A stretch of DNA of 63,359 nt from a virus (IMGVR_UViG_3300023179_000108:1-63359); one strand, 5' to 3'. Shown: positions 3,958-31,641, counted from the first letter of the stretch. Notes: generated by a model not told the origin, from the sequence alone. Numbers and translations are program-made.

Positions 3958-4113
3958 TGTCAGATGGTGAAAAGCGTTACGCATGGCAGACACACCCACC
4001 CGTCTAGTGGGCGCAGATAACGAGATAGATAAGTAATATAGGTTGACCACAAAGCCGGCTTATTTTGTTACTTATTGAATTGCTGCTTAGAGGTTCGAAT
4101 CCTTTTCTGACAG
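3958..4113 (+). ncRNA. tRNA-shelled element (divergent copy) with about 80-nt hairpin insert
   Basis: TGTCAGA/TCTGACA acceptor, GTG...TGGCAGACAC D-arm, AGAGG-TTCGAAT-CCTTT T-arm, CCCAC-CCGTCTA-GTGGG stem (C at position 33), long ATAAGTAA/TTACTTAT hairpin. Confidence 0.7.
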
Positions 4114-4459: not shown

Positions 4460-4827
4460 GGGGATGACTTGGAATTGATTGCTACACGAATGGCAATATT
4501 ACAAGTAGGAAAATGATACTATTCCTTAATATTGTATCAAAAAATAAATGCTGAAGAATTATCTTCCTTTACCTTCGAAGACGCTATGGCTTTCGTTGGT
4601 GCTGATTACGCAGTAGCTGCCTAATCACTCCCGCACACATCGTGGAATTTAAAAAGAATGTGCAACTAGAGTACGGCTCACTAACTCTTTAAATAAAAGT
4701 GAGAAACATAATGATAATGTATGTATAAAACTTATCTATTTGTCTATTATGAATAATATAATAAACTTGTGAGACGTTGATATTATTATTACTTAGCAAG
4801 ACGCCGGTTCGAATCCGGCCATCTCCA
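4460..4827 (+). ncRNA. ssrA: tmRNA
   Basis: 5' GGGGATG pairs with 3' CATCTCC including the G3-U70 alanine determinant; GCCGG-TTCGAAT-CCGGC T-arm; internal tag ORF ending YAVAA-stop. Confidence 0.93.
4550..4624 (+). other. tmRNA tag reading frame AEELSSFTFEDAMAFVGADYAVAA*
   Basis: ATAAAT immediately before the GCT resume codon; hydrophobic AA terminus. Confidence 0.8.
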
Positions 4828-4881
4828 CTTATATTTAACTTTCTTCCCTATTAGTTTTGTTAAGATTTAAAAAACTAACCT

Positions 4882-19618: not shown

Positions 19619-21434
19619 ATGGAAAGTAAAGATGAAATACATATAGGGTTTAATTCTTATTTGAATGTTCAAACATCAAAAATAATTTCATTAGATGAAA
19701 GATTAATTTTAATGGTTGAAGATCAAAAATCAATTGAATTAAAAATTAAAATTGAAGCTGACTTTAATACTATACCTGAAGAATATCATGAAATATTTTT
19801 AAATATGATAACTTCTAAATATTACAATAAAGTATCATTCAGTGATAATCTATTTTCACAATGTTGTAAACCAAAACGTAAGTGGTATGAATTTTGGAAG
19901 GCAAGATAATTATTTTATCTTTAATTCATAAAAATAAAAGTTATGATTACTTACAATTTAGAAGCAGTTAAACCTAAACTAATTGATTGGGTGAAAAGTA
20001 ATGTATCCGATTTTTGTAGTGATATGTTTAAAGAAATTCAACATGCTGCTGGACATAAATCACCAGATGATGTTGAAATGTTTTTAGGTCAAATAAGAGA
20101 AGCTGAAAAACTATCAGTAGATTATACTAAAATAATCAATGAAGCACAAACATTAGCTGATATACTCAAAATAGCTGATGAAGATGTTATGTGTAATGTT
20201 TTTTATGAAAGAGAAGATGAAATTATAACTATTATTTTGGGTGTTAAAATAGAACAAGTATATTTATAGCAAAAAATAAAATAAAATGACCGCTGTAGAC
20301 TTTATCAAAGCAATTATCAATGCACAGCACGGATGGGCTGTAGCCGATCAGTTTGAATCTACTTATGAAAATCCATCTCCAAGTAATTTTAGTGAACGAA
20401 ATCAAGAAGCACTTGATTCAATTAAAGAAACTATCGAAGATTTATTTGATAGTAATCTTTTAAGTGAAGGATTAATAGATGAATTAAATTATTATCTTGA
20501 CTGTATGGATGGACTTATTGATGAAGAAGAAGTAGATGATAACTATGATGATGGATTTGAAGATTATGATTATGATAAAGGTTTATTTGATGTTGATTAA
20601 TGGAACGGTTATTTAGAGCTTTATTTAAAACCATTATAGCTATTTTTATTTTAATGGTTATCATTGAATATGGTGATAATATAGTGTATTTTTATGAAAA
20701 ACACCCATGGATGTTAATAGCGACTATATTTTTCTTGTACTATTATTATTTTTCAAAATAGGCAAAATAAGATTTTTATATTCATGTTATGAAAAAAACA
20801 GCAGTACAAGAAGTAATTGATTATATTGAAAGTTCAACAAAGATAAAGTTTAAAGATACAAGTAAGGAATTATTTAACGATAAACACAAGTATCAAATAA
20901 CTGAAGCTATTGAACATGTACTTGCTGGTTTTATCACTAATGACTATCTTAGACATAAAATAGCTGAAAAATATTACAATGAAGTTTATGGTAATAATAA
21001 AAATAGTGAAGAATAATTTAAAAAATAAGTCATGAAATATCTTGTAACAACATTTATAGTACTCCTACTAGGAGTAGTTATGTATGGTTTGTATTCGTTT
21101 ATGTATTTAGAATTGAATCCACTTAAGTGGGAAGATGATGTTCGTAAATCTATTAGTTTTGGTTGGTTTAGTTTGTCAATGTTAATTGTTATTGTTAGAT
21201 CAATGACTAAAAAAGATAAAACTGATCCATATGGAAGAAAATATATCTAGGTGGGATGAATTAGAGAATAAATTAGATGTTTGTTCATTTGTTGCTTTTA
21301 ATAGAAGTAATAAATGGTCATATAAGATTTATTCTATATCAAATGATGAAATATTTGAGCAGAAAAGCGGTTATGCTACAAAAAATGATGCTAAAAAAGC
21401 ATGTTTAGATAAGTTAATTGAATTGGCAAAGTAA
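19619..21434 (+). other. small hypothetical CDSs 19619..19909, 19943..20269, 20286..20600 (very acidic), 20789..21016 (QTAV family), 21032..21250 (membrane), 21231..21434
   Basis: ORF track; several have their own promoter motif. Confidence 0.65.
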
Positions 21435-21467
21435 TTTTATTATTTTTACTTCATAAAATTAAAAGTT

Positions 21468-22103
21468 ATGAAAGTAATAGAGAAACCATGGTACTATGGT
21501 TCATATTTAGCCTATGAAGACATTGAAGATGAGTTTATACCTACTGAACGAGGAGTAAGGGTATTACCTGCTCCATTCTTCTATGATAAAAAGATATTTT
21601 TCACTTTACATAAACAATACCAACCAGGCGAAAAACAATCATTCCCAAATGGTGGTTATGAAGTCATAGACATGACTGGTGGTATTAGAAATTATGACTT
21701 AGATCAAATCATTATTCACCCAGCAGTATTGAAACATAAAAAGATGCTGGAGAAAATGAAACGTAGAACTGAAAAAACTCAAAAGCAAATTGATCGAGAA
21801 TTAAGAAAACGTAATCGCGAAGCTAAGAAACAAAATAAAACAGGCAAACGAGGCAGACCAGCACTTAATTCAGAAGAAAAAGCAAAACGAGAAATAGCTA
21901 AAGCAGAAAGTAAAACACGTTCAGGTGGTAAACGAGGTAGACCCAAATCAAATACACCTAAACCAATCACTGAAAAAACAAATACAGGTAAACGAGGTAG
22001 ACCAGCATTAAGTGAAGAAGCAAAACGTCAACGTGAATTAGCTAAATTAGCAACTAAGGTTAGAAGTGGTGGTAAACGAGGTAGACCTAAGAAGGCAAAA
22101 TAA
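21468..22103 (+). CDS. AT-hook repeat protein
   Basis: Four KRGRP motifs in a duplicated TGKRGRPAL...RSGGKRGRPK unit. Confidence 0.8.
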   Translation: MKVIEKPWYYGSYLAYEDIEDEFIPTERGVRVLPAPFFYDKKIFFTLHKQYQPGEKQSFPNGGYEVIDMTGGIRNYDLDQIIIHPAVLKHKKMLEKMKRRTEKTQKQIDRELRKRNREAKKQNKTGKRGRPALNSEEKAKREIAKAESKTRSGGKRGRPKSNTPKPITEKTNTGKRGRPALSEEAKRQRELAKLATKVRSGGKRGRPKKAK

Positions 22104-22132
22104 AAGTCTTATATTTATTAAAATTAATAGTT

Positions 22133-22342
22133 ATGAAAAATAAAGTTTGGCACAAAATCACTATTGCTACAGAGGAACAGAATGTAGAAATACACCCAAC
22201 AGACACGTATGATGGTATCATAGTGGTGACTAAAGAGCTGGATGATAAGACAGAAAGTCCACGAATGTATCTGAATGAAGATGAAATGGAAATGCTTATT
22301 CTTAAGATGAGAGAGATGATGAATTCTGTTAAAGCAAAATAA
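22133..22342 (+). CDS. hypothetical protein
   Basis: ORF track; promoter at 22094. Confidence 0.7.
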   Translation: MKNKVWHKITIATEEQNVEIHPTDTYDGIIVVTKELDDKTESPRMYLNEDEMEMLILKMREMMNSVKAK

Positions 22343-22344
22343 AA

Positions 22345-22479
22345 AATTAGGTTGATCGGGGAAGGAAGAGACTTATAAACCCTGTCGATGGGTGGGTAGG
22401 GCCTTCGGAGTTGAAATCGTCAAAGTAAAGCCAATCATAAAAGTAGATGTCCACGCAACCATCTTCTACTTTCCTAATT
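22345..22479 (+). ncRNA. putative structured ncRNA with pseudoknot
   Basis: AATTAGG/CCTAATT closing stem, TGATCGG/CCAATCA, AAAGTAGA/TCTACTTT; GATGG-GTGGG (22387-22396) is complementary to loop TCCAC..CCATC (22450-22463); GC-rich and non-coding. Confidence 0.6.
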
Positions 22480-22562
22480 CTCAGTGTTCCCAGAGATTAA
22501 ACGGGGGCTATTGACGACTGGAGATTAGTCGTAGGTTCACGATGCAAGAGAAATCGTAGGTT

Positions 22563-22699
22563 AGTCAGGTGGCGGAATTGGTAGACGCAAATAGGGTGTG
22601 TAAGTGTGAATCTAATCCGAGAGGTAGTCGCTCGGACAATAAAGCACTCGATTGATGAAGTGACTTGTCATCATACAGGTTCGAATCCTGTCCTGACTG
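22563..22699 (+). ncRNA. tRNA-shelled element, long structured insert
   Basis: AGTCAGG-TGGCGGAATTGGTAGACGC...ACAGGTTCGAATCCTGT-CCTGACT-G; no anticodon arm; insert hairpins TCCGAG/CTCGGA and TGATGA/TCATCA. Confidence 0.8.
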
Positions 22700-23037
22700 A
22701 TAAAAAAATAATATATGACAGAACTTGAGTATATACAGAAAAAACTGAATGTCATAAAAAAACTACGGAAGAACAACAAACCCTAAATTATGAATAAAAA
22801 AATAAAAGAAACTATTTTATTAATAGGTGCAGCCTTAGTTTGGTCATTAATATTGTATCTCCTATTTAAATTAATTCAATAAAAACACAATGAAAAAAGT
22901 AAAATTAGAACATGAAAAAAAGAAAGTTAAAATGGGTAGCGTGGTTTGAAACTCCGATATGTTTCTATACCAAAAAAGAAATGTTAAAATATTGCGAGGG
23001 GAAAATCGTGATGAAGAGTAAAATGAATTGTCATTAA

Positions 23038-23055
23038 AATCCTGTCCTGACTACT
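23038..23055 (+). repeat. 3'-half-only copy of the tRNA-shelled element
   Basis: AATCCTGTCCTGACTACTA with no 5' half upstream. Confidence 0.85.
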
Positions 23056-23193
23056 AAAACTTAAAAACATGGAACAAGAAAAATGCAATGTGTGTAATTA
23101 TGAAAATGGGCATAATTCACTATGTCCTAATAACGTGATTAACTCTGATGTGTACGAATATCAGAATAGTCAAATTGAAGAGTAAAATAACAT

Positions 23194-23271
23194 AGTCAGG
23201 TGGTGTAATTGGCAACGCAACATATAAGTCCGAGTGCATTGTTGATACAGGTTCGAATCCTGTCCTGACTA
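23194..23271 (+). ncRNA. tRNA-shelled element, short insert
   Basis: AGTCAGG-TGGTGTAATTGGCAACGC...ACAGGTTCGAATCCTGT-CCTGACT-A; CAACA/TGTTG stem with an oversized loop. Confidence 0.8.
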
Positions 23272-23454
23272 CTAAAATTAAAAGTTATGGAAAAAGATAA
23301 AGACTTTGAATCATTTGGATATAATACAGACAATCCATGTGAAATATGTGGAGAAAAACCTGCTAAAATAGAACCAAGATTCTTTTATACTGTTTGTAAA
23401 GAACATCAGTATTTAACACCCACACAAGTAAGTGAGTTAAAAATAAAGAAATAA

Positions 23455-23481
23455 TCAGGTGGGGGAATCCTGTCCTGACTA
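23455..23481 (+). repeat. internally deleted copy of the tRNA-shelled element
   Basis: TCAGGTGG fused via GGG to AATCCTGTCCTGACTA. Confidence 0.8.
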
Positions 23482-23633
23482 CTAAAAATAAAATACATGA
23501 AAACTCTATTTTGGATTTGTTACTATGGGCTTATAGTTGTATTAGGTATATATGCCGTTGTAAAATTCATTAAAAATAAATAAAAATTACAGAAGGCAAA
23601 ATAATTTTTTTATATTTACTAAAATTAAAAATT

Positions 23634-25114
23634 ATGATGTCAAACGATGAAATTCAAAAATGGAATAGAGAAATGTTCAATGAAATGCATGAACCTATTC
23701 AAGAAAGTGTTTCTGATGCTCTAGATTATGTTAAGTATACTTTAGAAGAAGCAAAAGAATGTCATATGGAAACTGAAGTGGTAGTTTGGGCTCTAAAGTA
23801 TATGAAAGATGATCCAACACTAACTATTAAACAGGCAATATCTTACTCATTTAACGATTGGATAAAATAAACAAATGAAAACATTTAGAATTATTGAAGA
23901 AGCCCCAGTTATCTGTGTTTGGACATACATAGTTGAAGCAGAAACTGAAGAAGAAGCATTAGAACTAGTAACAAATGGTGATGTTGAAGCAGCGGAGATG
24001 AATATTGAAGTAGATTATGAAGATGCTGAATTCACATACCATATTGAAGAAGAAGAGGCAAAATAATTATTTTATCTTTATTTAAACAATTAAAACAAAG
24101 GTTATGACAAAGCAACAAACAATTGACACTCTGAAAAGTCAACTCCCCGGATTTTATTCAGTTGAACAAGTAATCGCACTTATTGATGGTATTGAAGCTG
24201 AAACTGAACAAACAGCAATATCAAAACTTGATAGTGACAAAGTATCATCACTTGTAAGAGATATGGTTGAAGAAATATGTGATCAAGCTGATTCTCTAAT
24301 AGATAATTATGAGCTGGAAATGAATGGTAGAGAAGTAGAAATGACAAGTATTACACTTGATCTGTATGGTTTGAAATCAATAGTAGAAGAATATTTGAAA
24401 GATAATAATATAATGTTGATTGAGAAAGAAGAAAGTGATGAAGATTAAGTTGGCAAAATAATTATCTTACATTTATTAAAATTAAAAATTATGGCAAAAA
24501 TTGAATTTGTAGAACTCAAAGATGTTGATGATTCTTTATGGTATTTTACTCAAGTAAATGGATGTTATATTGTTAATTCTGGTAGTTTCAAGAAAGAAAA
24601 AGCATATGATTTTTTCAAAAAGTACGTTGAAAGCTCAAATAAAAAACCAGTTGAAACCGTTCTAGAAACTGTTGAAGTAGAAGAAGCAGCCGCACCATTC
24701 TAAAACAAACCATTATGAAAATTCAACTTGTCAAAGAAACAAAATACGACAAAGCCACCTACTACATTACAGTAGATGGTAAGTTCAAAGCTGGTTCCAC
24801 TTGTGATAACCTAGCAGAGGCACTGGAAGCATTTGAAGATGCTAAATATGAAGTAAATGGTAAGCGTATCGAAATTCTAATGCAAGAAGAACTTTAAAAA
24901 GGCAAAATAATTTTTATATCTTTAGCATATGAAAAAAATAATAATTAAAATCAACCAGCTATTGTTTACTAATGAAAATCAAAAAACATATAGCTTCACC
25001 CCAGGTACGCACACTATTCTGCCTACAGATATACTAGATGAAAAACAATGGATGAATGAGTTTAAAGTATCATTTATGTATGGTTGGCGAAGTAATCCAA
25101 TATATTTAGACTAA
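23634..25114 (+). other. small acidic hypothetical CDSs 23634..23870, 23875..24066, 24104..24448, 24491..24703, 24715..24897, 24929..25114
   Basis: ORF track; most have their own promoter motif. Confidence 0.7.
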
Positions 25115-25265
25115 TAAAAGTAAGTAAAAATGGATATGTTTTTATTAGTAATCATTATAATTTATTTACACGATATTAATCACAATATCAAAGTTAAAAA
25201 ATAATTTGTTAGGCAAAATAAAGATTGTATATTTAATTATTATTTAAACAATTAAAACAAAGGTT

Positions 25266-25502
25266 ATGAACAACGAAACGATGAATGTAGAAACAAAGCG
25301 CCGTGGAAGGCCGGTTGTTGAAAACAGTGCTCGCCAACTGAAACTCGCAGCACAAGCAGCACGAGGTGAAGTAAAACGAGGCCGTCCCGCGAATCCAAAT
25401 TCAAATCGCCAAACCAAAATGGCAGCACGAATGATTGTGATTGCAAATGGTGGTGAAGTAAAGCGTGGTAGGCCCAAGATGATAAAAGAAGTGGTTGCGT
25501 AA
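25266..25502 (+). CDS. small AT-hook protein, paralogue of 31056..31358
   Basis: Three RGRP motifs. Confidence 0.8.
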   Translation: MNNETMNVETKRRGRPVVENSARQLKLAAQAARGEVKRGRPANPNSNRQTKMAARMIVIANGGEVKRGRPKMIKEVVA

Positions 25503-25510
25503 GCAACCAC
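25491..25510 (+). other. hairpin at stop codon, before tRNA-Leu
   Basis: GTGGTTGC-GTAA-GCAACCAC. Confidence 0.6.
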
Positions 25511-25514
25511 TAAT

Positions 25515-25601
25515 GCCTGGGTGGTGGAATAGGTAGACACGCTTGACTTAAGATCAAGTTTGCAGAAAAAGCAAGTGCGGGTTCGATTCCCGCCCCAGGT
25601 A
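25515..25601 (+). tRNA. tRNA-Leu(TAA)
   Basis: GCCTGGG/CCCAGGT acceptor, CTTGA-CTTAAGA-TCAAG anticodon arm, long variable arm, GCGGG-TTCGATT-CCCGC T-arm. Confidence 0.95.
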
Positions 25602-25647
25602 CATAAATAAGATTACTAGTCTTATATGTTTACATATATTTATTAAT

Positions 25648-26115
25648 ATGAAACAATATAATACTAAAAAATCAAACAGTTGGGAAAAAACAGGTATTAA
25701 AGTTGATAATATCTCTCAACAAGAATTCGTTAATATATGTTCTAGTAGTGAATCAATGGCTCACGCCGCTTCTAGACTTGGATTACATTTTAATACTTTT
25801 AAAAAATATGCTCTTAAATATGATTGTTATAAACCAAATCAATCAGGAAAAGGATTAAAAAAAGAGAATGGGTATAGAGTAAAATATGATGGATTAAAAA
25901 CAAGAGCAGGAATAAGAAAACGAATAATAAAAGAAAAGTTAATTGAATATAAATGTAGTGAATGTGAAATATCAGAATGGAAAGGTCAAAAACTAGCATT
26001 ACATTTAGATCATATAGATGGTAACGCTTGGAATCATGATTTATCTAATTTAAGATTTTTATGCCCAAATTGCCATTCATTAACTGATAATTACACGGGA
26101 AAAAATAAAAAATAA
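25648..26115 (+). CDS. HNH homing endonuclease
   Basis: CSECE...LHLDHIDGNAWNH...NLRFLCPNCHSLT. Confidence 0.9.
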   Translation: MKQYNTKKSNSWEKTGIKVDNISQQEFVNICSSSESMAHAASRLGLHFNTFKKYALKYDCYKPNQSGKGLKKENGYRVKYDGLKTRAGIRKRIIKEKLIEYKCSECEISEWKGQKLALHLDHIDGNAWNHDLSNLRFLCPNCHSLTDNYTGKNKK

Positions 26116-26120
26116 AAGTT

Positions 26121-26375
26121 ATGAAAGCATACCAAGTATATAAAGGAGAACAAGATAAACACGGACATCAACAATTTGATTTAATAGCAACTTATTTAGA
26201 TAAACAACAAGCTTTAAACCACGCTGAAAAAATAGCTGAAGAAACTCCTTTGTATAGCGATACTATATTAGAATTTGATGGATGGTACGGGAAAGGTAAG
26301 TATTGTAGCTGGTCCATAAGAGGTTGGGAAATAATTATTGTTTCTCAATTCAGAGAGATTGAAATTATAGAATAA
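26121..26375 (+). CDS. hypothetical protein
   Basis: ORF track; ends 4 nt before a tRNA-shelled element. Confidence 0.7.
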   Translation: MKAYQVYKGEQDKHGHQQFDLIATYLDKQQALNHAEKIAEETPLYSDTILEFDGWYGKGKYCSWSIRGWEIIIVSQFREIEIIE

Positions 26376-26379
26376 AAAT

Positions 26380-26470
26380 AGTCAGGTAGTGTAATGGTAG
26401 CACGGAGTGAAGTAGACGCATTAACATGTAGTCCCGATCTCAAGTATAGGTTCAAATCCTGTCTTGACTA
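26380..26470 (+). ncRNA. tRNA-shelled element
   Basis: AGTCAGG-TAGTGTAATGGTAGCAC...ATAGGTTCAAATCCTGT-CTTGACT-A; non-canonical interior. Confidence 0.78.
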
Positions 26471-26563
26471 CAAACACAGAGTGACGTAGGTTGATGTTCC
26501 AAAAAGGAATCTGATATAGAGTTAAAAGAGGTAGGAGAAATCACTCATTAACCCACCCAATTT

Positions 26564-26636
26564 AGTCAGGTAGCTCAAAGGTCGAGCGGGCCCGTAACAG
26601 GGAGTGCGTATGCAGGTTCGAATCCTGTCCTGACTA
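26564..26636 (+). ncRNA. tRNA-shelled element of tRNA size without a canonical anticodon arm
   Basis: AGTCAGG-TAGCTCAAAGGTCGAGC...GCAGGTTCGAATCCTGT-CCTGACT-A; only CCC-GTAACA-GGG inside. Confidence 0.78.
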
Positions 26637-26671
26637 CTGATAGTCATACTTTTAATTTTTAATGGTGAAAC

Positions 26672-26704
26672 GACCTGGAGTGTCTACTCCGGGTCTCTTT
26701 TTTT
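26672..26704 (+). terminator. intrinsic terminator
   Basis: GACCTGGAGT-GTCT-ACTCCGGGTC followed by a T-run. Confidence 0.85.
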
Positions 26705-26756
26705 AAAGGTTGGCAAAATAAAAGTTTTATATTTAATCAATTAAAAAATAAAAGTT

Positions 26757-28753
26757 ATGAAACTAATTTACACAAAACGCGAACTTCAAGAATTAGATAC
26801 AATTGAGCAAGCTTGGGATGATGATGAATTAAAAATTGATGAGGATAATGTTCGTGTATGGTTAACACATACAGAAAATAGACAATACAATGGTGATTAT
26901 GTTGTTGAAATAAAAACAAATGGTAGTTGGACTCAACACTATATGTTGTTTGAATAAGAGTGACAAAATAAATTCTTACATTTAATTATTAATAATTAAT
27001 TATATGATCATAGAATTAAAAAGCATCATTGAAGAAATAAGTGATTTCATTAATGAAAACACTGATGAGTTTGAATTTGTAGTTGATATTAATAATTTGG
27101 ATTTATGGGAATTTGATTTTAATGATTTGAGTTTTAATATAAGAGAATGCTGTAATATATTTGTTAGAGAATTAGAAGATAATAGTATTGAAAAAGAATA
27201 TAGTGAAAGTGTTATTAAAAAAGTCTATAAAAACAATTTAATATTATACTTGGTTAATTAGGCGAAATAAATTATTAACTTTATTAAAATTAAATAATAT
27301 GATTACAAAAGAACAATTCCTAACAGCTCAGTTAAAAGATATCTCTCAAGTTTATCTTGGTAAAAATCATCACTGCCGATGCGGTTGTGGAGGAAAATAT
27401 ACCGCTACTACTTACATGATTAAACCTCGTACAGCGACTATAGACAATAATTTGGTTAATTTGCGTCTTAAAAGAGCAAAAAAACTGATTGAATCTGGAG
27501 TTCAAGTTGATTATGGTGATAATTATGTTAATATTGTGACAGGAAATAATCGAGCCTTGACATTTTATTTTAACGAAACACAACAATAAAAAAGTTGGCA
27601 AAACAATTCACTACATTTATTAAAATTAAAAGTTATGAAAATAGAATTGACAGACATGCAGCTACAAAATCTATACTATGTAGCTAACAAAGTGAAACTA
27701 GAAAAGGAGAAGGGAATGTTTGCAATGATTGAAATGAATGAATTGGATGAACTAATTGAATTGCTTGATAACGCAATAGAAGAAAATAATAAACAATTCA
27801 GACAAGAATTGTGGAATAGTGTTAGTAAAACTATGGATAAAAGGACAAAATAGTAACCATATATTTAATTAATAAATAAAAAGGTTATGGCACAACAAAC
27901 AGCAGTTGAATGGTTGATAAAGGAAATTGACTCACAATATCCGCATATTAATATCTTATGGAAGCAGTGGATGATCGAAAAAGCCAAACAAATGGAGAAA
28001 GAGCAGATAATAAAAGCAGATTTAGCTGGAGTAGAAAGAACTATTGTAAAATTTAATGAATATTTACCTCTTCCTGATGTATTAAATGTTTTAAAAAACA
28101 TTAAACAAGGCATAGATATACATGAAGAAGGAGAACAATACTATAACGAAATTTACACAACCAAATAATAAACAAACAAAAAACCAAAGGTTATGATGAA
28201 CGTAAATGAACTAAAATCCAACTACAGTATTTTCGGTAATAAAGGAAACGTATGGAATAATACAGCTCATATCTATAAATCGGGTGAGGGTAATTTATGT
28301 GGAACTCCAGCACTATCAACTAATTGGGCTAGGATAGAAAATGTAGAAACAATCGGTTGTGTGGAGTGTTTGAAAAAATATAATGAAACTAATTATGAAA
28401 TATTTGATATAGATACTCAATATAATACTGAAGTGTATTATGGGGATGATGATTATGATTTTGGTTATGATGAATGGAAGCAGCAAAGTAGGTAATAATT
28501 TAGTTGAATTTTGTAGTTGAAATTAGGAAGTCAAAATAATTCACTAACTTTACTTAAATAAAAAAATCAAGTTATGAATACACAAGAATTGGCAACTAAA
28601 ATCTACAATTACATTACAACTCTTAATAGAAACGGAGAACATTGGGATAAGTGGGATGATGAGAGGGAAATCGATTTCATTAGGAGCCTGATTGATAATC
28701 AACACAAGTCAGTAATAGAGCAAAACTGTAATAATGATGATTGGGGTTTCTAA
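26757..28753 (+). other. small CDSs, nearly all with their own promoter: 26757..26957, 27004..27261, 27299..27589 (CRCGCGG motif), 27635..27853, 27887..28168 (QTAVEW family), 28193..28495 (Cys/His motifs), 28574..28753
   Basis: ORF track plus promoter motifs. Confidence 0.7.
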
Positions 28754-28782
28754 AGGTGAAATGAACAAGTAAAAAATAATAT

Positions 28783-28905
28783 AGTCGGGTGGCGGAATGG
28801 TAGACGTAAATACATCCAGTTATAGGGACTGAAACTCAAGCACATTTACGTTTTAGTAAATGAGAGATGAAAAAACTAATACAGGTTCGAATCCTGTCCT
28901 GACTA
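28783..28905 (+). ncRNA. tRNA-shelled element, long structured insert
   Basis: AGTCGGG-TGGCGGAATGGTAGACGT...ACAGGTTCGAATCCTGT-CCTGACT-A; insert hairpin CATTTAC/GTAAATG. Confidence 0.8.
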
Positions 28906-29029
28906 CTAAAAAAAGAAAAAATGTTTTACGAAGCAAACAATAAAAAGGATTTTATTATTGGTTGGATTTCGGGCGTGATATTCGCTATATCAATTGTAAT
29001 ATTGTTTAAGATTCTGTAAAAAATGTATT

Positions 29030-29248
29030 AAGTTAATGGATGGAAATAGATGTTAGAGGGTGGAAAATGATAGGGTGTTATGTAGTGTTTTTTTATAGAT
29101 CTTTGTTATAGTATGTGGAATGGTGTTAATGTAGAGTTAGGTGATGGTTGTGATAAGGTTCCTTTCTTTTCTCGCCTCACCTAATTTTTTTTCTAAACCC
29201 AATTTTTTTATACACAATTTTTTTTATTCTATTTTTTTTTCTCCAAAA
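29030..29248. other. non-coding stretch with abrupt G-rich to C/T-rich strand switch
   Basis: 29030-29160 almost lacks C; 29161-29248 almost lacks G. Confidence 0.7.
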
Positions 29249-29294
29249 AGGCAAAGTAATTTTTTTATATTTAATCATTAAAAAATTAAAAGTT

Positions 29295-29546
29295 ATGTAC
29301 AATGAAAAAACAATGAACAATGTTATGTTGCAACGCGCAGCATTGATGGGGGCATTTTCAGCTATTCTTGCCACTGAGGAAGAAAAAACAATAGAGGAAA
29401 TTAAAATAGCTATTTGTAATTTTATAGGTGATTTGATTAGTCAAGGGATAACTATAGGTGATGAAATTGAATTGGATGTCACTAGCCGATGTATAATTTT
29501 TATTGAGCAACAAAGAGCAGTTGTTGCGGTTAACAGTATACTTTAA
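29295..29546 (+). CDS. hypothetical protein
   Basis: ORF track; promoter at 29250. Confidence 0.7.
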   Translation: MYNEKTMNNVMLQRAALMGAFSAILATEEEKTIEEIKIAICNFIGDLISQGITIGDEIELDVTSRCIIFIEQQRAVVAVNSIL

Positions 29547-29594
29547 TATAAGAGAGGCTAAGTTTTATTTTTATATTTATACAAATAAAAAGTT

Positions 29595-29807
29595 ATGAAT
29601 AACTACAAAACGCAAATGACCGCCCCCACTTACAAAATTGTTTATACTAAAAAGAATGGGGACGTTAGGGTAATGAAATGTAGGGTAGAAAGTGATTACT
29701 GTGAACATATTTCAGGCAAGCCAGAATATGTTGTTGTTTATGATTTGGTTAACGAGGGATACAGGACAGTAAATACTGATACGATTAAGTTGTTTGAATT
29801 GATGTAA
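29595..29807 (+). CDS. WYL_2/SH3-like beta-barrel protein
   Basis: YTKKNGDVR...VVYDLVNEGYRTVN. Confidence 0.65.
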   Translation: MNNYKTQMTAPTYKIVYTKKNGDVRVMKCRVESDYCEHISGKPEYVVVYDLVNEGYRTVNTDTIKLFELM

Positions 29808-29824
29808 TGTGAATTGGATATAAT

Positions 29825-30163
29825 AAATGAGGGGGTCAAAACCCCCTCACTACATTTATCTTATAAAATTAAAACGTATGAAAATTAAAGTAATCAAAAA
29901 CGCTTATTACGTAAGTGAAGATTTGACTAATTACGGCTGTGTAGATGAAGAAACATTTAACAATTCATTTTCGCAAGTGTTGTGTGTTGGAGATATATGG
30001 GAGAGTTGTAGTACTGAGTTTGGTGACTTTTTTAAATGTATTAAAAGTAATATATGGAGAGAAGAGTTGAATGATGGTTGGTGGGATTATGATCGTATGA
30101 AAGATTATTTTGAAGTGATTGAAAATTAAAATGAGGGGGTCAAAACCCCCTCACTACATTTAT
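29825..30163 (+). repeat. direct repeat of a promoter-containing stem-loop (29825 and 30129)
   Basis: AATGAGGGGGTCAAAACCCCCTCACTACATTTAT occurs twice, flanking 29878..30129. Confidence 0.9.
29878..30129 (+). CDS. hypothetical protein
   Basis: Start moved to MKIKVIK, downstream of the promoter hairpin. Confidence 0.7.
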   Translation: MKIKVIKNAYYVSEDLTNYGCVDEETFNNSFSQVLCVGDIWESCSTEFGDFFKCIKSNIWREELNDGWWDYDRMKDYFEVIEN

Positions 30164-30588
30164 TAAAATTAAAAGTTATGAATTACAACATTGGTGATCA
30201 GGTCATTATTAAAGATGACAAATGTAAATTATATGGTACGATTATAGAAATAAATAATGACATAATCACAGTTCGTACTATGTTTGGAAATAAATTGGTC
30301 ACAATAAATGAAATTGTAGATTAATTGGGCAAAATTATTTATTATATTTAACCATTAAAATTAAAACGTATGAGAGTTACTAATGAATTGCTTCAAAAGT
30401 ATTTCGAAGCATTAGTTGCAGGTCAGCCTGATGATGTTGTAAATATGTTAATGGAGTTGTTTAATGAAAAAGTTAGTCAAAGGGAGTGGATTGAATTAAT
30501 TGCCGATGATGTTTATGATATATACAAAGATGTATAAATAAAAAGGCAAAACAACAATTGTATATTTAACCATTAAAAATTAAAAGTT

Positions 30589-30867
30589 ATGTTTACAAGT
30601 AATCGCAACAAAGGATTCACAATGACATTTGAAAATGGCTGGACTATAAGCGTTCAGTGGGGTATAGGAAATTATTGTGATGTAGGCCGTTCAGCAGAAG
30701 ATTATAATGAATCAACAAAGCATAAATCTTGGAAATCCGAAACCGCTGAAATAGCAATATGGGATAAAAATGATAATTGGTATGAGTTTGAACATGACAC
30801 AGTAAAGGGGTATTGCACAGCCAATGAAGTAGCTGAGTGGATTTTGATTGCGGCTACATTGAAATAA
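30589..30867 (+). CDS. hypothetical protein
   Basis: GFTMTFENGWTISVQWGIGNYC; own promoter. Confidence 0.75.
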   Translation: MFTSNRNKGFTMTFENGWTISVQWGIGNYCDVGRSAEDYNESTKHKSWKSETAEIAIWDKNDNWYEFEHDTVKGYCTANEVAEWILIAATLK

Positions 30868-31055
30868 AAAAGCAAAACAACGAACGTACATTTAACCATT
30901 AAAATTAAAACATATGAACACAATTATCATTACAGCACAGTTCAGTGCCGCAGCAATTGTTTGGGTATTAATTGTATATGTTATTATTAGTAAAATTAAA
31001 GAGGCAAAGTAACGAACGTATATTTAGTCATTATTAAAAATTAAAAATTAAGGTT

Positions 31056-31358
31056 ATGAGTAAGAAGAAAGTACAAGTAGTCGAAACAACTGAAGTAGTT
31101 GTAATTGAGAATTTGGTCGAAGCGGTTGTAACTGAAAAACGCAAACCCGGCCGCCCGATAGTAGAAGGTAGTAAGCGTCAACTTGACCTAGCCGCTAAAA
31201 TGTATCGGGTACAATTGAATGGTGGTATAGTAAAACGTGGCCGCCCAATAGTAGGTGAAAGTAAAAGACAACAAAGAATGGCTGAACGGGAAGCTAAATT
31301 GGCGGCCGGAATTGAAATTAAAAGGGGCCGCCCCAAAATGGTAGTAGCCGAAGCATAA
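31056..31358 (+). CDS. small AT-hook protein
   Basis: PGRP, RGRP, RGRP; aligns with 25266..25502. Confidence 0.8.
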   Translation: MSKKKVQVVETTEVVVIENLVEAVVTEKRKPGRPIVEGSKRQLDLAAKMYRVQLNGGIVKRGRPIVGESKRQQRMAEREAKLAAGIEIKRGRPKMVVAEA

Positions 31359-31374
31359 ATATTAAATAACAAGT

Positions 31375-31404
31375 AATGGATGGGGACGAAGGTCCCCATT
31401 CGTT
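31375..31404 (+). terminator. stem-loop after the AT-hook gene
   Basis: ATGGGGAC-GAAG-GTCCCCAT; weak T-tail. Confidence 0.55.
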
Positions 31405-31641
31405 ATCTCAAACAGCACGGGTGGCGAAACAACAACCGTATATTTAATCATTAAAAATTAAAAATAATGATTACAAAAGCGTTGATCGAAGTAGTAATTG
31501 AACTGAGCCCAGCCATTATAATAATGGGTATTGTAGTTGTTGGTTGTATCATGTTTACTAAGCCTGAGGATGATGTTAAATGGGAAGACATTGATGGGGC
31601 GAAATAACGAACGTATATTTAATTATTAAAAATTAAAACAC

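Follow-up and report, generated by a model that had tools for sequence, protein, structure and literature searches.

What are the tRNA-shaped genes that recur in a phage genome without the arm that would hold an anticodon? The question arises from the viral record IMGVR_UViG_3300023179_000108:1-63359, whose full 63,359 nucleotides (63 kb, the whole virus record) constitute the window analysed here. An initial annotation, made from the sequence alone, described a family of RNAs between positions 22563 and 28905 that keep the acceptor, D- and T-arms of a tRNA (hereafter the shell) and carry unrelated inserts (the interior, or cargo) in place of the anticodon arm, and proposed that they form a natural tRNA scaffold. 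Our analysis upholds a natural scaffold with exchangeable cargo, by direct comparison of genomic slots and by covariation in both shell and cargo, and adds a role at the DNA level that had been missed: the constant halves of the shell are sites of exchange for cargo, micro-genes and spacer RNAs. We regard this architecture and exchange as nearly certain. Judging from sequence, the product is probably a processed stable RNA, and the reading towards which we lean is that the shells are tRNA-Leu-derived carrier RNAs of phages whose genes double as recombination joints.

All five complete copies that had been described (E1 to E5; Table 1) were recovered. No two share an interior type and none has a canonical anticodon arm, in agreement with the initial annotation. 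The 15-mer that ends the shell occurs seven times in the window, two of them in stubs absent from the initial annotation, against 0.06 occurrences expected by chance, and four of the five elements reach the Rfam tRNA gathering score when the shell alone is scored. The common AGTCAGG...CCTGACT frame holds overall, with the exceptions that E5 begins with AGTCGGG and that E3 has wobble variants in its T-arm and acceptor. The element at 3958, previously counted as a sixth copy, is related to the shell, sharing acceptor bases 2-6 and showing compensatory changes at pairs 1 and 7; we treat it as a diverged relative because its acceptor (TGTCAGA), its T-stem and its base 73 (G) differ. It is nearly identical in a sister phage, itself 92% identical at the query protein. 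Plus-strand terminators were predicted on none of the five window elements, and one stub (23453-23480) probably arose by deletion.

The wider family was collected by pattern scans and not with a covariance model; set sizes given below (151, 232, 233, 254 and 263) are counts among the matches listed, and L and G numbers denote loci from the scans and genomes, respectively. Shells have a 7-bp acceptor, a D-arm with G18G19 and a 5-bp T-arm with a TTCRA loop, as in the tRNA family RF00005; the D-arm is canonical in 207 of 263 shells and U3-A70 is present in 260. The Levitt pair 15:48 covaries across the variable insert (A15:U48 327, G15:C48 17, G15:U48 4, A15:C48 18, others 10; Fisher p 3e-16, uncorrected for relatedness), with G15 elements spread over 17 interior types, and the pattern is repeated in the smaller 263-shell set. 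T-stems also vary by compensatory change, and such changes are seen in the acceptor as well. The shell is selected for a tRNA fold. The inserts observed either take the place of both the anticodon arm and the variable arm or lie in the D-loop, between bases 15 and 18, and a canonical anticodon arm (5-bp stem, 7-nt loop, U33, purine 37) was called in 4 of 263 shells, mostly spuriously, one call being a T-arm mis-hit; a looser test also picks the L092 chimera described below. In L029, whose shell has T73, the insert looks like a canonical anticodon arm (loop TTTGAAA) and may be a further case of tRNA-body capture.

The borders of the shell resemble those of real tRNAs. The leader has U at position -1 in 130 of 151 elements and A at -2 in 110, the trailer has C74 in 147, and the same bases occur at the real tRNAs of the window phage; the processing-signal role that had been among the suggested functions would fit these bases. 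A look-up of RNA runs for 22400-29000 returned none, a result that speaks neither for nor against expression. In a few loci that share one slot (L031, L069, L092, L105, L129, L202, L269 and L304) a TAnnTTTG box lies 4 nt ahead of the shell, so that base 1 itself may be the transcription start there, and a conserved non-coding module follows the shell in this slot.

Exchange of cargo between genomic sites is seen directly. Nine slots have both 50-nt flanks homologous, and five of them hold unrelated interiors while four hold the same type; the pair counts (24/30) are dominated by one slot with seven members and six interior types and are not independent. L191 and L223 have identical 50-nt flanks around unrelated interiors. 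Conversely, both flanks are unrelated in 195 of 210 related-interior pairs, the flanks differ in the same way for 62 of 67 testable recurring types, and interiors identical to the letter lie between unrelated flanks in 14 pairs. One cargo type also occurs in a fully different, still paired acceptor (L333), as do other types in L085, L213 and L368, which means that the acceptor described as constant is dominant and not invariant; its constancy in our counts is in part built in, since the parser demanded an acceptor within one mismatch of the consensus. Shell variants at bases 49-51 track the interior seven times and the flank twice, and those at bases 59-72 track the flank four times and the interior once, counts too small to place the crossover point. 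The shell acceptor of L092 encloses a tRNA(UAU) body whose gene is intact in L011, L123 and L190, and the cargo of L106 and L122 is found outside any shell in L010, closed there by a stem of its own; with either direction of transfer, such cases suggest a route for recruiting new types.

Five genomes, two of them near-complete and three less than 90% complete, were searched for dedicated enzymes. The reverse transcriptase family PF00078 was found in none, although a host enzyme could still serve, and RtcB likewise in none. An integrase (PF00589) was found in one, its frame interrupted by three internal stops and its position about 46 kb away from the shells (G001:C1:211231-211503); TROVE was found in one, about 51 kb from a shell, and a CCA/poly(A) polymerase-family gene in one (G001:C1:238094-238513). 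No target-site duplications were seen by eye at the loci inspected, where no formal count was made.

Is the cargo itself constrained? The claim that interiors are individually structured stands as a family average (mean folding z of -0.52 over 233 interiors versus +0.11 over 150 control stretches) and fails for single window elements, none of which folds significantly better than its own shuffles (z -0.3 to -1.5). Interiors are enriched in GNRA/UUCG hairpins (31 versus 13 +/- 3) and T-loop motifs (15 versus 5 +/- 2), and a 5-bp stem is present in 218 of 254 interior types versus 185 +/- 5 in shuffles. The best-sampled type comprises 30 loci, from which 20 distinct sequences were aligned, with one lacking a parsed 5' end excluded. 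In this alignment 96% of cells pair, 16 of 28 pairs change on both sides, including three of the eight pairs of the interior stem, and the whole-structure values are matched by 0 of 500 shuffles and collapse in slid controls; the six acceptor changes come from one sequence, however, and part of the inner hairpin is misaligned. A second type folds as an H-type pseudoknot, and each of its two crossing stems shows compensatory changes (five sequences counted, 4 of 500 shuffles equally high); swapped pairs were seen by inspection in the E3 interior type. An unpaired 11-nt stretch is invariant in all eight members of one type, which were found without targeting that type. In alignment A3, the invariant unpaired stretch ahead of the T-arm (columns 79-89) contains TATAAAT, which we take to resemble a T4-type late promoter, possibly by chance. 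Interiors do not appear to be of coding origin, as open frames (2.18 versus 2.12 in shuffles) show no excess.

The chassis itself points to leucine tRNA. A real 83-nt phage tRNA-Leu(GAG) has a D-arm identical to the shell consensus and GTCAG at acceptor bases 2-6, and on these two grounds it is the likely shell ancestor. Escherichia coli leucyl-tRNA synthetase (LeuRS) requires A73, A15-U48, G18G19 and A20a, and charges variants without anticodon and variable arms (PMC9976931); the Aquifex aeolicus enzyme also requires proper variable-arm orientation (PMC2377443). Taking the identity set as A73, U8:A14, A15:U48, G18G19, A20a and an intact T-loop (PMC9976931, PMC2377443), we found it complete in 148 of 263 shells, a sample partly selected by a 5' pattern that contains A14 and A15, and in E2, E3 and E5 of the window. 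Base 73 alone is A in 235 of the 263. Leucylation is thus plausible for many shells, not for all.

These observations can be joined into a working model. A shell element would be transcribed along with early genes, host RNase P would cut at base 1, and trimming after base 73 or 74 and addition of CCA would yield a stable L-shaped RNA that presents its folded cargo at the anticodon/variable-arm position; about half of these RNAs could be leucylated. The cargo would most likely bind a host or phage protein, as aptamer or decoy, and we consider a function through protein binding somewhat probable on the sequence patterns; varying targets would explain the many cargo types. At the DNA level, where the exchange itself is seen in the sequences, the constant halves, about 25 bp each, are the crossover points: crossovers in both halves of one shell swap the cargo, and crossovers in neighbouring shells swap what lies between the two, be it a micro-gene or a free RNA. 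The enzyme would be a recombinase of phage or host, and not an integrase or reverse transcriptase, and new cargo would come from captured tRNA bodies or free spacer RNAs. A bolder version of this model, which we put forward tentatively and think doubtful, is that the shells form a shared recombining library of about 1000 RNA aptamers or decoys, each presented on a tRNA-Leu chassis to which the host gives maturation, protection and perhaps an amino acid. Their genes lie among those for hypervariable small proteins of host takeover and counter-defence, of which the shells might then be the RNA equivalent, and crossover at the shell might bring in new members from free RNAs and tRNA bodies.

Several points weigh against the carrier model. 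Charging cannot be general, given that E1 has G73 and E4 lacks A20a. Interior folding is only modestly above shuffles on average, the excess of crossing stems is weak (43 versus 30 +/- 5), and constraint was examined in three types only, as most types are singletons. The covariation means that folding matters and is not proof of a cargo ligand; no partner protein or target for the cargo was found in the analysis. A RecA/UvsX match occurs in only three of the five genomes searched. The elements are, moreover, dispensable and decaying, as none of the five is in the sister region and stubs occur both in the window and in G002.

Among the alternatives, we think it unlikely, though deserving of attention, that the shell alone works, as a recombination joint and a tRNA-type cutting signal in early transcripts, whose cutting frees micro-gene mRNAs and spacer RNAs, and that interiors are stuffers that need only fold without disturbing it. 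An A-rich leader and an open reading frame (ORF) of at least 30 aa lie within 40 nt downstream of 72 of 232 shells, homologues of window micro-ORFs begin right behind shells, stubs retain the 3' end and leader after loss of the interior, and elements of only 48-72 nt occur, all of which this explanation accommodates. Neither a joint nor a cutting signal needs pseudoknotted inserts of 50-150 nt, however, and the invariant 11-nt stretch, together with cargo kept across many flank contexts with compensatory changes, is difficult to reconcile with mere filler. It appears improbable to us that the shells serve instead as decoys, drawing off defence toxins that attack tRNAs and recognise their acceptor end or elbow, with an incidental interior. 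It would account for the conserved L-fold and bases N73 and C74, for the entire bacterial LeuRS identity set (as defined from PMC9976931) in more than half of the shells, and for G001, which has five shells and no real tRNA; yet the same cargo recurs in completely changed, paired acceptors, and the cargo's diversity and constraint are left unexplained. Anticodon nucleases would, moreover, be without a cutting site, given that the canonical anticodon arm is nearly absent. The acceptor-specific decoy role suggested at the outset is accordingly weakened, also by the 28 of 263 shells that lack A73.

We think it very improbable that the cargo works as an antisense or guide RNA on transcripts of the phage or its host; antisense cargo had also been raised as a candidate role. 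A constant frame with high diversity may recall guide systems, and CAT is the commonest triplet ahead of the T-arm (43 of 263), but the longest exact sense and antisense matches to the phage's own DNA stay within shuffle maxima for all five window elements and all four G001 elements considered, motifs complementary to start codons number 1 against 2.8 expected, and cargo changes compensate within the RNA itself. Against the phage's own DNA, antisense cargo is not supported. Decaying tRNA pseudogenes or intron-containing tRNA genes, which descent from a real tRNA-Leu and the existence of stubs and damaged copies might suggest, are largely refuted, and we give them hardly any weight: tertiary-pair covariation speaks against decay, and excision of the insert restores a canonical anticodon arm in 8 of 254 types versus 4-13 in shuffles, and in none of the five window elements, so splicing to restore an anticodon is not supported. 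Rfam scans recognised no intron family, and an intron-containing tRNA gene was rejected as a candidate class.

The family is large and largely confined to viral and metagenomic sequence. A 21-nt 3' pattern matched at least 135 viral loci, and the 5' half is present upstream in 155 of the 166 3'-pattern matches listed, the five window elements included. Among the matches listed for the 5' pattern are at least 127 loci and 136 matches, giving 118 distinct elements with a 3' half (exact acceptor in 91), while 12 failed the strict parse. A metagenome scan added at least 124 further loci. In 185,579 prokaryote genomes the match count was no higher than 27 loci, every one of which lies in a metagenome-assembled genome (MAG) bin; the bins are of mixed phyla, and many of the loci are probably mis-binned phage contigs. 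GenBank phage records yielded no whole element; 85 and 53 records had short tRNA-arm matches, none covering 80% of E1 or E2. The pooled set, which excludes cargo-targeted scans, holds at least 438 distinct elements of 48-198 nt (median 104) in at least 313 interior types, of which 243 are singletons; the number becomes 272-299 types under other thresholds, with Chao1 estimates of 842-1030. G001 (99% complete) has its five shells, a tmRNA and the polymerase-family gene alongside no ordinary tRNA, so shells are independent of a tRNA cluster. The sequences suggest that the family is wider than the AGTCAGG form. Anticodon-less tRNA-shaped RNAs with other acceptors were noted in the L178:14143-14250 region, L012, L132, L220 and L262. 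Shells with a broken 3' acceptor strand occur in L204, L211, L270, L248 and L294, and in the first three a long hairpin with a GAAA tip follows, with weak Rfam tRNA matches only.

The searches made agree with the suggestion that the family is possibly undescribed. Rfam scans of the window and two batches of loci (20 and 10, one in both) returned only tRNA, tmRNA and sub-gathering matches, and no account of the shell family was found by title or abstract start in the open-access literature. Five tRNA-like candidates are named in Fremin and Kyrpides 2023 (PMC10690425). Four shell 12-mers are absent from those of its supplements that were searched, and as these are part of the set only, its 8,495 models may include the shell or certain cargo types. 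Phage is not mentioned in the available part of PMC7609411.

The region around the window elements, compared with that of the sister phage, fits this picture (Table 1). It has no AGTCAGG shell in the 10 kb downstream of the query protein and lacks a 1.45-kb block (22136-23591) that lies between two promoter-like repeats, and its tRNA-Leu joins directly to the sequence that follows E4 in the window, the junction falling at bases 72-74. Gain and loss are equally compatible with this absence; a single shell was seen in the compared stretch of one out of four relatives that are more distant. The micro-ORFs at 23069 and 23497 sit behind stubs, and their homologues sit behind complete shells with other cargo. 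The stretch 22419-22478 has homologues in 8 loci (about six distinct contigs), some directly ahead of shells or tRNAs.

Table 1. Features of the window that concern the shells and their surroundings (element coordinates include base 73)
Feature	Position	Strand	Remarks
Diverged relative	3958..4113	+	acceptor TGTCAGA; D-loop with an inserted hairpin; G73; ahead of the tmRNA
Promoter-like motif copy	22094..22121	+	left border of block absent from sister phage; right border 23595
69-aa ORF	22133..22342	+	homologue behind shell-like 3' end in L033
Non-coding spacer ahead of E1	22343..22562	+	folds no better than shuffles
E1	22563..22699	+	shell; 84-nt interior of two hairpin domains; Leu-type D-arm; G73; singleton interior type
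Two micro-ORFs (23, 30 aa) after E1	22715..22882	+	no Pfam match
Stub	23038..23052	+	3' end only; micro-ORF behind it follows a complete shell in L162
38-aa micro-ORF cassette	23069..23185	+	L162 DNA homology starts exactly at base 73
E2	23194..23271	+	shell; 25-nt interior; complete LeuRS identity set
55-aa micro-ORF	23287..23454	+	between E2 and second stub
Stub	23453..23480	+	5' shell remnant fused to T-loop via shared GAAT
28-aa micro-ORF	23497..23583	+	homologue behind shell in L301
Genuine tRNA-Leu(UAA)	25515..25602	+	left border of HNH-ORF-E3-spacer-E4 block
HNH endonuclease gene	25648..26115	+	within HNH-ORF-E3-spacer-E4 block
84-aa ORF ahead of E3	26121..26375	+	homologues in L177
E3	26380..26470	+	shell; interior type in two other flank contexts with compensatory stem changes (L038, L343-L349)
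Non-coding spacer E3-E4	26471..26563	+	82% identity over 92 nt to spacer ahead of tRNA in L243
E4	26564..26636	+	shortest shell; class-I-type D-arm; called tRNA-Val by ARAGORN, without canonical anticodon arm
Terminator-like hairpin after E4	26672..26705	+	conserved in L308-L312
E5	28783..28905	+	shell; 70-nt interior; followed by 32-codon ORF

The rest of the genome is that of a phage with genes for baseplate, primase, thymidylate synthase and HNH proteins, six ordinary tRNAs and a tmRNA (4460-4828). Its host is probably a member of the Bacteroidota, as judged from Bacteroidota titles on 14 of the 27 genome-bin shell-end loci and from the TAnnTTTG box behind which shells start (4-6 nt ahead in 17 of 263 shells), which we take to be a consensus pointing to that phylum. 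The shell region is crowded with small ORFs, many with a repeated promoter-like motif upstream. This motif, GGCAAAATAA, has 39 matches in the window versus 12.9 expected, 35 of them on the plus strand; the matches span 559-62997 and are densest at 20761-31607, ahead of small ORFs. The HNH genes at 1270-1710 and 25648-26115 immediately follow tRNA-Pro and tRNA-Leu, and ahead of each gene is a short inverted repeat that by eye resembles part of the adjoining anticodon arm. Basic proteins with repeated RGRP motifs are encoded at 21468-22103 and 25266-25502, and the former matches the Pfam AT-hook family.

If the carrier model is correct, the shells would be the natural counterpart of the laboratory tRNA scaffold, with their own means of diversification. 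They also show that phage mosaicism can arise by way of RNA genes, and they provide several hundred small structured RNAs whose exact, shell-defined boundaries make the function of tRNA-associated phage RNAs, such as T4 RNAC and RNAD, testable at scale. ARAGORN calls tRNAs on about 33 of 151 family members, an annotation trap that would distort phage tRNA and codon analyses.

Single parts of this system have precedent. For a library of structured RNAs that can be exchanged within a single tRNA frame, our search of the open-access literature found none. Canonical tRNAs differ from the shells in having an anticodon arm, and an integron cassette array and a SINE-like retro-element were set aside on the enzyme searches above, which found no intact tyrosine integrase with the array and no reverse transcriptase in the five genomes. 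The tmRNA (RF00023) likewise has natural tRNA-like ends around a pseudoknotted cargo. It has one conserved function, an alanine acceptor (G3-U70) and a tag ORF, whereas in shells the pair is U3-A70, the D-stem is complete and open frames are no more frequent than in shuffles, and no Rfam tmRNA match falls on them. T4 RNAC and RNAD, too, have tRNA-like ends. They are late small RNAs of unknown function, phage non-coding RNAs associated with tRNA genes (PMC9697503), but are two fixed genes, whereas the shells are a multi-copy mobile frame with a library of interiors, and no GenBank phage record covers 80% of E1 or E2. The bacterial Y RNA YrlA, found also in phages, joins a protein-binding part to a domain that mimics tRNA and in which the Levitt pair covaries (PMC4201824); the shell acceptor is built from the RNA ends and is not an internal stem, and the single TROVE match is distant from any shell. 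Allo-tRNAs and irregular tRNA polycistrons (Mukai et al., PMC5389517) are irregular tRNA-shaped genes from metagenomes, some in tandem, with 8/4 or 9/3 acceptor branches and anticodons, whereas shells have a 7/5 branch and no anticodon arm.

At the DNA level the shells resemble the PeSL cassettes of T4-type phages (Arbiol et al. 2010, PMC2839356). These lie as intergenic repeats between small orphan genes, and recombination between copies shuffles the flanked genes; shells, too, are repeated intergenic copies at which orphan genes are exchanged. A PeSL consists of an early promoter and a terminator hairpin, however, whereas the shell is a tRNA-shaped gene with no plus-strand terminator call and provides two joints around an exchangeable RNA. 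The closer PeSL analogue in the window is the separate promoter-like repeat, which may be a second, PeSL-like joint given that it borders the block absent from the sister phage. At the RNA level, the engineered scaffold of Ponchon and colleagues (PMC3753655) keeps acceptor, T-arm and D-arm and carries foreign RNA at the anticodon position, where cell factors process the RNA and protect the insert. That scaffold is man-made and holds one chosen insert; the shells are natural, their insert also replaces the variable arm, and they hold hundreds of inserts exchanged by recombination.

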